DNA of 64,000 nt from a bacterium (GCA_030698385.1 JAUYLZ010000008.1:1430-65429), one strand, 5' to 3'. Counted from the stretch's first letter, positions 6,960-41,314 are shown. The notes: generated by a model from the sequence alone, not told the origin. Numbers and translations: made by a program.

Positions 6960-8582
<1,623 letters not shown>

Positions 8583-8807: not shown

Positions 8808-8881
8808 GGGCCCATAGCTCAGTTGGTTAGAGCACCGCCCTTATAAGGCGGGGGTCGATGGTTCGAGTCCATCTGGGCCCA
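8808..8881 (+). tRNA. tRNA-Ile (anticodon TAT)
   Basis: A 74-nt manual cloverleaf: acceptor GGGCCCA/TGGGCCC, anticodon arm CCGCC-CTTATAA-GGCGG, T arm GATGG-TTCGAGT-CCATC. No CCA is encoded. Confidence 0.85.
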
Positions 8882-8908
8882 CTGAATAAAATTTTAAAGT
8901 ATAGCGGG

Positions 8909-9137
8909 TATGTAGTTTATATTATTGAAAGTGATAATTATAGAAATAAAAAATAATTAATTATAGCGGGGTAGAGTCCCGCTGAGGCGGGAGCAGCTCG
9001 CCAGGCCCATAATCCCGCCGTGGCGGGATCGCCGATTTGAGACTTTATATCATGAATACTAATAAAAAATATGTAGTTTATATTATTGAAAGTGATAATT
9101 ATAGAAATAAAAAATAATTAATTATAGCGGGGTAGAG
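8909..9137 (+). repeat. Tandem duplication (161-nt period) of the initiator-tRNA leader and 5' end
   Basis: The 68-nt stretch at 8909-8976 is identical to 9070-9137. Confidence 0.9.
8965..9043 (+). pseudogene. Disrupted tRNA-fMet copy carrying two 16-nt GC hairpins
   Basis: It matches tRNA-fMet at agcggggtagag, gcagctcgccaggcccataa and tcgccg. The D-loop is replaced by tcccgctgaggcggga (8977-8992). The 3' anticodon stem and variable loop are replaced by tcccgccgtggcggga (9013-9028). The 3' acceptor strand is missing. Confidence 0.75.
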
Positions 9138-9198
9138 CAGATGGCAGCTCGCCAGGCCCATAACCTGGAGGTCGCCGGTTCGAGTCCGGCCCCCGCAA
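9126..9198 (+). tRNA. Initiator tRNA-fMet (anticodon CAT)
   Basis: Near-collinear with E. coli tRNA-fMet (…GCGGGGTAGAGCAG…CCCATAA…GGTTCGAGTCCGGCCCCCGCAA). It has a 1:72 mismatch (A:A) and the A11:U24 pair. Two G:C pairs lie next to the anticodon loop. Confidence 0.8.
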
Positions 9199-9285
9199 CA
9201 CGTTAATTTTAGATTTGAGATTTTAGATTACAGATTTATAACACTCAAAATTATAAATCTAAAATCATCAATCATAAATGCAATC

Positions 9286-9357
9286 GCCTCGGTAGCTCAG
9301 TGGTAGAGCAAAGGACTGAAAATCCTTGTGTCGTCAGTTCAATTCTGACCCGGGGCA
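9286..9357 (+). tRNA. tRNA-Phe (anticodon GAA)
   Basis: A 72-nt manual cloverleaf: acceptor GCCTCGG/CCGGGGC and anticodon loop CTGAAAA. Confidence 0.85.
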
Positions 9358-9387
9358 CAACTATATAAAAACTATGACTTATGATTT

Positions 9388-9461
9388 GGGCAATTAGCTC
9401 AGTTGGTTAGAGCGCGTCCCTGATAAGGACGAGGTCGGTGGTTCGAATCCACCATTGCCCA
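9388..9461 (+). tRNA. tRNA-Ile (anticodon GAT)
   Basis: A 74-nt manual cloverleaf: acceptor GGGCAAT/ATTGCCC and anticodon loop CTGATAA. Confidence 0.85.
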
Positions 9462-9473
9462 CCTAAAAATCTA

Positions 9474-23786: not shown

Positions 23787-23850
23787 GTCATTCCTGCGAA
23801 AGCAGGAATCCACGTCATTTTTTTCTGGATTCCCGCCTTCGCGGGAATGA
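23787..23850. repeat. Two inverted GC-rich palindromic mini-elements (gtcattcc…ggaat family)
   Basis: Comprises gtcattcctgcgaaagcaggaatccac and ctggattcccgccttcgcgggaatgac. Confidence 0.8.
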
Positions 23851-23855
23851 CAATA

Positions 23856-29835: not shown

Positions 29836-29848
29836 ATTATTTCCTTAT

Positions 29849-29884
29849 GGATTCCCGTCCCGCAGACTGCGGGACGGGAATGAC
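29849..29884. repeat. GC-rich palindromic mini-element
   Basis: ggattcccgtcccgcagactgcgggacgggaatgac. Confidence 0.8.
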
Positions 29885-29891
29885 AAAAAAA

Positions 29892-41029: not shown

Positions 41030-41314
41030 ATTTTTGTTAAATTAAATTTATTACTGTTTTTATTATACCACAAAAAAGACTTTCGACAAAATTTAAAACA
41101 AAAAAACCGCCCCGAGTACTCGGGACGGTCTTTTTAGTTTGACTGACTTATTGAAATGCAAGGTTGCCAATTTTTGGAGTTGTTTTACCCCGCCATTGCT
41201 GGACAAATTTCTTTTTTTGTTTTAGGCGCCTGCCCGCCTCTGGCGGGAATGCCCAAAAAAAGGAATATTTCAGAGTTTTGAAATAAGCCGTTATCAAATG
41301 AGCAAAAAAACTCC

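Follow-up and report, generated by a model that had tools for sequence, protein, structure and literature searches.

The probable footprint of a small GIY-YIG element beside an initiator-tRNA gene in a Patescibacteria genome

How does a duplicated initiator-tRNA gene come to carry two short GC-rich hairpins in place of parts of its body? The question is posed by a locus in a 64,000-nt stretch of bacterial DNA (GCA_030698385.1 JAUYLZ010000008.1:1430-65429; "the window" below means this whole stretch), where a dead copy of the gene, V, lies upstream of an intact one, N. The source genome belongs to the Patescibacteria (candidate phyla radiation, CPR), close to Candidatus Falkowbacteria; its 16S rRNA gene (6960-8580) shares ~87% identity and synteny with that of a Falkowbacteria genome, L088. 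In our judgement, positions 8888-9125 are probably the decayed footprint of a small selfish GIY-YIG element that resides at initiator-tRNA genes, and the hairpin is part of that element. Duplication and hairpins are read as one package derived from a mobile element because the hairpin recurs elsewhere, because it is linked to one family of open reading frames (ORFs), and because the "leader" of the duplicated gene appears to be a remnant of such an ORF. The same observations, together with empty sites in relatives, are the reason for reading the locus as a decayed, tandemly duplicated scar.

The window locus consists, in order, of a stump, an ORF remnant, V, a second ORF remnant and N (coordinates are given in Table 1). 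An earlier note on this DNA had described an exact 68-nt direct repeat with a period of 161 nt, leading downstream into an intact initiator-like tRNA and upstream into a dead duplicate with two inserts of the same kind of GC palindrome, and this description holds. ARAGORN, run on both copies as the note had proposed, recognises tRNA-Met in the downstream one only, which also matches Rfam RF00005 at 56.5 bits against a gathering score of 29. V (8965-9051) is unchanged relative to N at positions 1-12 and ~20-38. Between these two tracts the D-loop CAGATG is replaced by TCCCGCTGAGGCGGGA, and after them CCTGGAGG, which in the intact copy forms the 3' strand of the anticodon stem and most of the variable loop (positions 39-46), is replaced by TCCCGCCGTGGCGGGA. 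The T arm is mutated and the 3' acceptor strand is missing, as had been noticed before; the sequence is degenerate after TCGCCG and lacks the 3' strand of the T stem, and upstream-type copies at other loci stop at the same place. ARAGORN makes no call in V, and Rfam gives no tRNA match there even at E<=10. Having neither the 3' strand of the anticodon stem nor that of the acceptor stem, V cannot fold as a tRNA and is no longer tRNA-like. In shuffled versions of the window, the expected number of TCCCGC-N4-GCGGGA motifs is 0.00.

The same hairpin occurs in other genomes. One scan used the 20-mer common to both window copies, with one genome per species, and found at least 119 Patescibacteria loci. 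The 20-mer lies within a normal tRNA in all but one of the 119 listed loci, apart from three cut by contig ends, and 115 of the 119 listed CPR tRNA-fMet loci have no hairpin copy. The exception, from another Patescibacteria genome (L048), carries both hairpins at exactly these positions, with the same stems and different loops, and its hairpin copy retains the T arm, the acceptor strand and CCA; two more of the listed loci (L039 and L031) hold decayed hairpin versions. In a second scan, metagenomes were searched for the anticodon loop CATAA followed by TCCCGC, which gave 86 instances on 76 contigs, most of them with ordinary bacterial tRNA-fMet sequence and not the CPR type. These 76 contigs and several genomes together provide 102 distinct sequence contexts in which the hairpin replaces the same 8 nt after CAUAA, and the carriers include Falkowbacteria and Verrucomicrobia. 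The GCGGGA arm is perfect in 93 of the 102 contexts and is followed in 76 of these 93 by TC, corresponding to tRNA positions 47-48, while the loop ranges from 2 to 7 nt, with at least 45 different sequences. Nearly every hairpin instance has an intact tRNA-Met(CAT) on its strand a few hundred bases away, and in most cases the distance is within 700 nt.

The palindrome has also been found in place of the D-loop (L048, L178, L189, L039, L154, L155, L177), replacing or within the T-loop region (L142, L177, L179, L183), and after the acceptor end (L198). Two types of altered copy are seen. Upstream-type copies, as in the window, match the live gene exactly over the leader and positions 1-38, with identical tracts of 38-100 nt; they retain positions 47 to ~62 and then diverge, and their 3' parts decay differently between loci. 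Downstream-type copies have only positions ~22-38 before the hairpin, and positions 47-76 with the downstream flank after it. In L198, one downstream module has a T arm like those of L196 and L197 and unlike that of its own tRNA, a sequence likeness that suggests a horizontal origin. Another module of L198 is hybrid and its T stem is broken, so that the point of recombination falls in the T loop; this also counts against selection for the RNA fold. Similar tandem units are present in L154, L183 and L170. At L183:4560-5000 (minus strand), a normal tRNA-fMet is followed by four perfect tandem copies of a 109-nt unit made up of spacer, tRNA fragment, hairpin, T arm and acceptor end, so the modules can amplify without an ORF.

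Complete hairpin variants are called by ARAGORN as 83-88-nt "tRNA-Met(cat)" (L122, L124, L128, L135, L137, L145, L190 and others), and these calls force a mismatched anticodon stem and a long variable arm. A class-II tRNA with the hairpin as its long variable arm was rejected on this account: in the forced fold the anticodon stem has two mismatches and two G-U pairs. Hairpin-bearing pseudo-initiator tRNAs are likely counted as real tRNAs in the automated annotation of metagenome-assembled genomes. A further stretch, L005:2400-2500, lies between tRNA-Pro and tRNA-fMet; its end is like the tRNA-Pro 3' end (..ctcaccccgacca), and it contains TCCCGCGAAGCGGGA and, after it, another GC hairpin. The stretch may represent a pseudo-tRNA-Pro with hairpin substitutions, in which case the process is not strictly confined to tRNA-fMet.

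An ORF of ~90 aa (85-100 aa) that consists of a GIY-YIG catalytic domain alone typically separates the altered copy from the live tRNA. The ORFs of related loci match PF01541 with E values of 5e-12 to 1e-18; Pfam finds the catalytic domain only and no DNA-binding domain, and NCBIfam gives no match. The nearest solved structures by sequence are 1ZG2 (BH0048, E 7e-5) and 1YWL (EF2693, E 3e-4), and the family has a conserved C-terminal motif of its own, KRQKGG-GF/L. A GIY-YIG profile match lies within 800 nt at 51 of 76 variant loci, compared with 12 of the 119 listed ordinary CPR tRNA-fMet loci (Fisher p = 7e-17), and many of the 25 variant loci without a match are cut by contig ends. The ORF stop is in many loci the TAA of the anticodon loop CAUAA, and in the downstream type the tRNA fragment supplies the last codons of the ORF as well (AGCTCGTCAGGCTCATAA, encoding SSSGS-stop). 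In the Falkowbacteria locus L199 the ATG of the ORF comes directly after the tRNA 3' end. In L189 the order is V - ORF - N; the ORF is intact there, and its stop is the TAG of tRNA positions 8-10. The ORF that separates N from a full V in L178 carries a frameshift.

The linkage was also examined without reference to the hairpin, by finding homologues of the ORF through protein searches and inspecting the surrounding DNA of eight of them (in Prosthecobacter fusiformis, Verrucomicrobium sp. BvORR034, a Falkowbacteria bacterium and five others). In all eight the ORF ends in ..CATAA (once CATGA) and is followed directly by TCCCGC-N2-4-GCGGGA, a T arm and the acceptor 3' strand. An intact tRNA-fMet lies upstream in seven of them, and further decayed tandem units are often present; the eighth, L197 (Verrucomicrobium), has no tRNA call, and just a tRNA 3' part precedes its ORF. 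Some database proteins of the family include the translated hairpin (e.g. ..AHNPAKRD..). No homologues were found in plasmid and phage collections.

In the window, a trace of this ORF is found in the duplicated leader. With the Falkowbacteria ORF (L199/P0121) as query against the whole window, tblastn aligns residues 1-15, from Met1 onwards, with the second remnant at 67% identity and E 0.023 (window MNTNKKYVVYIIESD, Falkowbacteria MDTNKPYEVYIIKSE), the best match in the window after an unrelated full-length GIY-YIG gene at 1764-2066. The L189 ORF matches the remnant at E 0.042, the N-terminus of P0122 reads MNTDKPYEVYVIKS, and the tail of the remnant (..AAAAAATAATTAATTATAGCGGGGTAG) is like the ORF end in L189 and L199. 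To judge from these alignments, the leader is an internally deleted remnant of the GIY-YIG ORF; L206 has a similar internally deleted copy. Because the second remnant is a dead ORF copy, the repeated 68 nt are accounted for as ORF remnant from codon 7 on plus tRNA positions 1-12. The stump at the left end (unit 0), whose AGCGGG is joined directly to codon 7 of the ORF remnant, is left from an older tandem unit. The nuclease gene is presumably dead in this genome, and its remains presumably do nothing for the cell.

Orthologous loci, whose comparison the earlier note had called for, are empty in two syntenic Falkowbacteria genomes (L067 and L088): tRNA-Ile(TAT) is followed directly by a single initiator tRNA, and V, the duplication and the hairpins are absent. 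With occupied sites in several phyla, this amounts to a presence/absence polymorphism at a conserved site. The simplest history would begin with the order V - ORF - N, like that of L189. The middle of the ORF would then have been deleted, as in L206, and the unit of V and remnant would have been duplicated in tandem, as in L154 and L183, with most of the first unit lost afterwards.

The element proposed here would have three parts, namely a ~90-aa ORF with the GIY-YIG catalytic domain alone, a second copy of the tRNA-fMet gene, partial or whole, and a 15-16-nt palindrome, TCCCGC-N3/4-GCGGGA. The palindrome would replace tRNA positions 39-46 of the redundant copy; in AT-rich lineages like this one it would take the place of the D-loop as well, and in some other cases that of the T-loop or the CCA end. 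One tRNA copy would always stay intact, and the combination of an ORF with an altered and an intact tRNA copy is found repeatedly across phyla. The element may spread into tRNA-fMet genes by double-strand-break repair (homing), in which the tRNA stretches flanking the hairpin, ~22-38 (17 nt) and 47-62 (16 nt), would act as homology arms. The hairpin would be placed where the nuclease cuts or binds. It would protect the spare copy from being cut, spoil it as a tRNA and, by interrupting the repeat, hinder recombination with the live copy that would delete the element. The role of the hairpin may accordingly lie in destroying the nuclease target, in breaking homology, or in being a palindrome that a protein binds. 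As the last of these it could be the binding site of the ORF's own protein, being dyad-symmetric, with arms that copy both strands of the acceptor stem.

Several points weigh against this account. Cleavage by the nuclease and mobility of the element are deduced. No DNA-binding domain is recognisable in the ORF, an unusual state for a site-specific homing endonuclease. The intact tRNA beside the ORF retains the presumed target, so a simple model of target-destroying insertion fails to explain why the host gene is spared. The metagenome sample was picked by the 5' arm of the hairpin, and the invariance of that arm is therefore partly built in. The ORF remnant of the window is short, 15-21 aa, with an E value of about 0.02. 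The leaders of V and N are identical over up to 62 nt, a degree of sequence identity that suggests in-situ duplication or gene conversion rather than the import of foreign arms. The 161-nt tandem itself is known from the assembly.

Other explanations have to be weighed against the same evidence. The earlier note saw in the locus a "direct snapshot" of mini-palindromes invading a duplicated tRNA gene, that is, a tandem duplicate hit twice, independently, by the dispersed palindromes of the genome, which killed the spare copy. Palindromes of the same core are indeed dispersed in the window (23831 and 29858) and in the Patescibacteria loci L065 and L079, the hairpin is found in the T-loop, at the acceptor end and in the tRNA-Pro-like stretch of L005 as well, and the tRNA parts around the window's hairpins match the live copy at 100% identity. 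However, the substitution of positions 39-46 is alike in over 100 independent sequences of distantly related bacteria and goes together with a single ORF family, also at loci found by protein alone, and this speaks so strongly against independent random hits that we consider them improbable. The hairpins moreover replace 6-8 nt instead of being inserted, they lack the conserved flanks GTCAT / ATCC of the dispersed copies, and the duplicated leader appears to be an ORF remnant. An assembly artefact, in which strain variants yielded a collapsed or mis-joined repeat, would suit a source that is probably a metagenome-assembled genome and a repeat that is short and exact; the only other contig with the neighbouring trigger-factor gene is short and ends before the fMet genes. 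Hairpin sequences must nevertheless derive from reads, and tandem units of the same kind are known from L154, L183 and L170. As dozens of independent assemblies, isolate genomes among them, share the architecture, such an error is very unlikely. A partial tRNA duplication beside an intact tRNA, as seen here, is the usual mark of integrase-type insertion, and an island or prophage targeting the tRNA gene could have left it as an att-site duplication. We think this hardly credible: there is no recombinase ORF or island between or beside the copies, the insert measures 161 nt here and ~300-500 nt elsewhere with the GIY-YIG ORF only, the 5' part of the gene is duplicated with its leader and not just the 3' part, and phage and plasmid collections hold no match.

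It is also conceivable, though unlikely, that the hairpin module is an RNA or DNA site under selection that still works in the window, as an operator or decoy for the GIY-YIG protein, as a 3' structure that serves the stability or processing of the ORF mRNA, or as a mimic of the acceptor stem of the initiator tRNA. The stems are invariant while the loops are free to vary. The arms UCCCGC/GCGGGA are the acceptor strands (66-71 and 2-7) with only the 7:66 pair changed, so GCGGGA could pair with the 3' CCCCGC in an acceptor/T-arm minihelix. Downstream modules usually have an intact T arm, CCA and terminator, and in L199, where the AUG comes directly after the tRNA, tRNA processing could release a leaderless mRNA that ends in the module. 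In the window, V and N are preceded by the same weak promoter-like match, one in each repeat, so V may still be transcribed; its fold is modestly more stable than those of shuffles (z = -2.1). V has no features of a processed RNA, however, and Rfam at gathering thresholds finds ordinary tRNAs only in the window and 20 loci, a permissive scan of 8890-9125 adding only spurious AT-rich matches. The earlier note held that conservation with compensatory changes and a stable RNA would mark the copy as functional. No compensatory change was found anywhere in the hairpins, and there is no covariation because the stems never vary. The 3' parts of hairpin copies decay in different ways in different loci, which counts against a conserved stable RNA, as does the broken T stem of the L198 hybrid against a functional module. 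The neighbouring ORFs are often frameshifted or deleted, and the window copy has neither an ORF to serve nor a 3' acceptor strand. For the intact modules at other loci a functional structured RNA is conceivable, though it suits neither the absence of covariation nor the varied decay. Three further ideas were dropped. A split or intron-containing tRNA fails in that removal of the hairpins restores neither the D-loop nor the anticodon stem; a VapC-type cut at A38/C39 of the initiator tRNA offers no route from an RNA cut to DNA; and covariation of the hairpin with the host acceptor stem does not hold, as hosts with GCAGGG/CCCTGC acceptors still have TCCCGC/GCGGGA.

Table 1. Coordinates of the locus, its neighbours and related features (window positions unless a locus is named)
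Feature	Position	Strand	Support or remark
tRNA-Ile(TAT), left neighbour	8808-8882	+	ARAGORN; Rfam 76.2 bits
Unit 0 stump: leader-like stretch and first 6 nt of the tRNA, AGCGGG (8903-8908)	8888-8908	+	81% match to 9111-9131, repeat family D4
Copy 1 of the exact 68-nt repeat: ORF remnant from codon 7 on and tRNA positions 1-12	8909-8976	+	
GIY-YIG ORF remnant without its first 6 codons, YVVYIIESDNYRNKK and stop	8909-8956	+	translation; tblastn
Dead copy V, positions 1-12: 5' acceptor strand, U8 A9, start of D stem	8965-8976	+	identical to 9126-9137
Hairpin 1, TCCCGC-TGAG-GCGGGA, in place of the D-loop	8977-8992	+	
V positions ~20-38, GCAGCTCGCCAGGCCCATAA: D-stem 3' strand, anticodon-stem 5' strand, anticodon loop to A38	8993-9012	+	identical to 9144-9163
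Hairpin 2, TCCCGC-CGTG-GCGGGA, in place of positions 39-46	9013-9028	+	
Remains of V, positions 47 to ~62: TCGCCG, then degenerate T loop	9029-9051	+	15/32 matches to intact copy
Internally deleted GIY-YIG ORF remnant with start codon, MNTNKKYVVYIIESDNYRNKK and stop	9052-9117	+	tblastn; translation
Copy 2 of the exact 68-nt repeat	9070-9137	+	
Intact initiator tRNA N, anticodon CAT	9126-9199	+	ARAGORN; Rfam 56.5 bits
tRNA-Phe(GAA) 9286-9358 and tRNA-Ile(GAT) 9388-9463, right neighbours	9286-9463	+	
Dispersed intergenic palindromes	23826-23851, 29846-29886, 41233-41250; L065:4509, L079:409, L079:7035		between same-strand genes
Small GIY-YIG ORFs of another subfamily between tRNA genes	L017:7296-7547, L061:7271-7603, L005:2871-3131, L068:7291-7554		

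In the intact tRNA N the 1:72 position is unpaired, A1 standing opposite A72 (AGCGGGG ... CCCCGCA), and its relatives have C1 x A72. A mismatch at 1:72 is a trait of initiator tRNAs, with C1 x A72 in E. coli. The three consecutive G:C pairs 29-31:39-41 are absent in N, whose stem CCAGG/CCTGG has two G:C pairs and A29:U41. The missing third G:C pair is a clade trait and not a defect, since it is common to at least 119 Patescibacteria species. The initiator tRNA of the clade (N, L001-L119) also has C33 in the loop CCCAUAA in place of U33, which is near-universal in tRNAs; the 20-mer with the C33 and A29:U41 traits is common to the same minimum of 119 species. The gene order fMet-Phe is conserved in Patescibacteria. 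On the left, tRNA-Ile(TAT) directly follows the 16S gene, with a second tRNA-Ile (GAT) 500 nt further on. No 23S rRNA gene was found in the remaining 54 kb of the window past the 16S gene, so the rRNA genes are unlinked.

GIY-YIG ORFs of other kinds lie in the window and in other Patescibacteria. The full-length 100-aa ORF at 1764-2066 of the window (minus strand) belongs to another subfamily (..KGWRREKKINLI..) and has no tRNA gene adjoining and no GC hairpins nearby; as a partner of the tRNA hairpins it was rejected for these reasons. Small GIY-YIG ORFs of yet another subfamily lie between tRNA genes at ~10% of the listed ordinary Patescibacteria tRNA-fMet loci (Table 1), so single-domain GIY-YIG genes seem drawn to tRNA clusters in Patescibacteria. 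Those at L017, L061 and L068 were set aside as examples of the element, being of a different subfamily and free of partial copies and hairpins. At L088:540-830 (minus strand), the loop of a 16S rRNA helix holds an inserted GIY-YIG ORF (CCCCGCCCTTTTGGCA ... TGCCAAAAGGGCGGGG), and the tip of the same helix in the window, at 8489-8504, is the bare hairpin CCCCGC-ATTT-GCGGGG. TCCCGCAGGATTGCGGGA stands directly after the 16S 3' end of L088.

The earlier note had assigned both tRNA inserts to a palindrome family seen at three other sites of the window, and this is correct in part. The core is present at 23831 and 29858, where it is embedded in a longer conserved palindrome, GGAT-TCCCGC..GCGGGA-ATGAC (ATTCCCGC..GCGGGAAT), and the third site, at 41233, is a loose match. 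The tRNA hairpins share the core TCCCGC/GCGGGA with this dispersed family but not its extension and flanks (GGAT/ATTCCCGC ... GCGGGAAT/GAC) or its intergenic setting; their own flanks are tRNA sequence, GAG...GCA and TAA...TCG. A second type of palindrome, TTCCTGCGAAAGCAGGAA, adjoins the dispersed one at 23790-23810.

An apparent one-off pseudogene would thus exemplify a widespread, stereotyped element that parasitises a highly conserved gene without destroying it. The decayed GIY-YIG element would explain the pseudo-initiator tRNAs and the 83-88-nt "tRNA-Met" calls of ARAGORN. It would also give a first biological context to a branch of the single-domain, UPF0213-like GIY-YIG proteins of unknown function, and offers a concrete candidate target and recognition site for such a nuclease. 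How one exact 16-nt palindrome comes to be written over different loops of a tRNA gene copy is a mechanistic puzzle. As a speculation that goes further, and that we hold only tentatively, the ~90-aa protein and the palindrome could form a so far undescribed minimal mobile system specialised on the initiator-tRNA gene that has crossed phyla, from Patescibacteria to Verrucomicrobia and others. The palindrome would then be the recognition site, bound by a dimer on the dyad-symmetric site or as an extruded hairpin, and would be written into redundant tRNA loops by break repair.

The element resembles several known systems in part. The seg genes of phage T4 are free-standing GIY-YIG homing endonuclease genes, and one of them, segB, sits in the T4 tRNA gene cluster. 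SegB-driven segmental amplification of a tRNA region was reported in 2026 (PMC13096335). Like the element here, the T4 seg genes are small GIY-YIG ORFs adjoining tRNA genes, with variable presence among relatives and local duplications. Unlike them, the element here is chromosomal across phyla, has ~90 aa of catalytic domain alone, keeps to one tRNA species, carries a hairpin-substituted partial copy of its target and is so far a matter of genome data. I-TevI and the Seg proteins also have a separate DNA-binding domain and a long recognition site, which the ORFs here lack. The UPF0213/YhbQ-type GIY-YIG proteins (1ZG2, 1YWL) agree with the ORF in size and domain content, but they are not described as linked to tRNA genes, and the family here has its KRQKGG-GF/L motif. 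Integrative elements at tRNA genes (attL/attR) likewise have one intact tRNA and a partial copy flanking the insert, whereas the element here has no recombinase, may have either half of the gene duplicated, and has its redundant copy systematically altered by the palindrome.

GC palindromes in AT-rich genomes are known as the GC clusters of yeast mitochondria, the Rickettsia palindromic elements, and REP sequences with their RAYT transposase. These too are GC-rich and self-complementary, lie in sequence derived from structural RNA and are perhaps paired with a nuclease gene that they flank; the palindromes here differ in having 15-16 nt, in occupying fixed positions in pseudo-copies of one gene, and in having a GIY-YIG partner and not a Y1 transposase. 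In Neisseria, dRS3 repeats have the form ATTCCC-N8-GGGAAT, with the dRS3/Nf1 consensus ATTCCCgcCTgcgcGGGAAT (PMC3046118). The dispersed palindromes of the window (e.g. ATTCCCGCCTTCGCGGGAAT, 23829-23848) match this consensus, and their core is that of the tRNA hairpins, although the organism is another one, the tRNA hairpins lack the AT/AAT extension, and an IS110-type gene is not seen in the vicinity. As part of the tentative speculation above, the nuclease family might also be what spreads the dRS3-like palindromes of these genomes, which would make it a GIY-YIG counterpart of the REP/RAYT pair. A full-text search of the literature gave no description of a GIY-YIG gene coupled to altered copies of the initiator tRNA. 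Free-standing GIY-YIG genes that lie among tRNA genes, with a tRNA partly duplicated at the insertion, are of a known kind; the restriction to the initiator tRNA, the fixed palindrome over fixed positions, the minimal ORF and the spread across phyla appear to be new.

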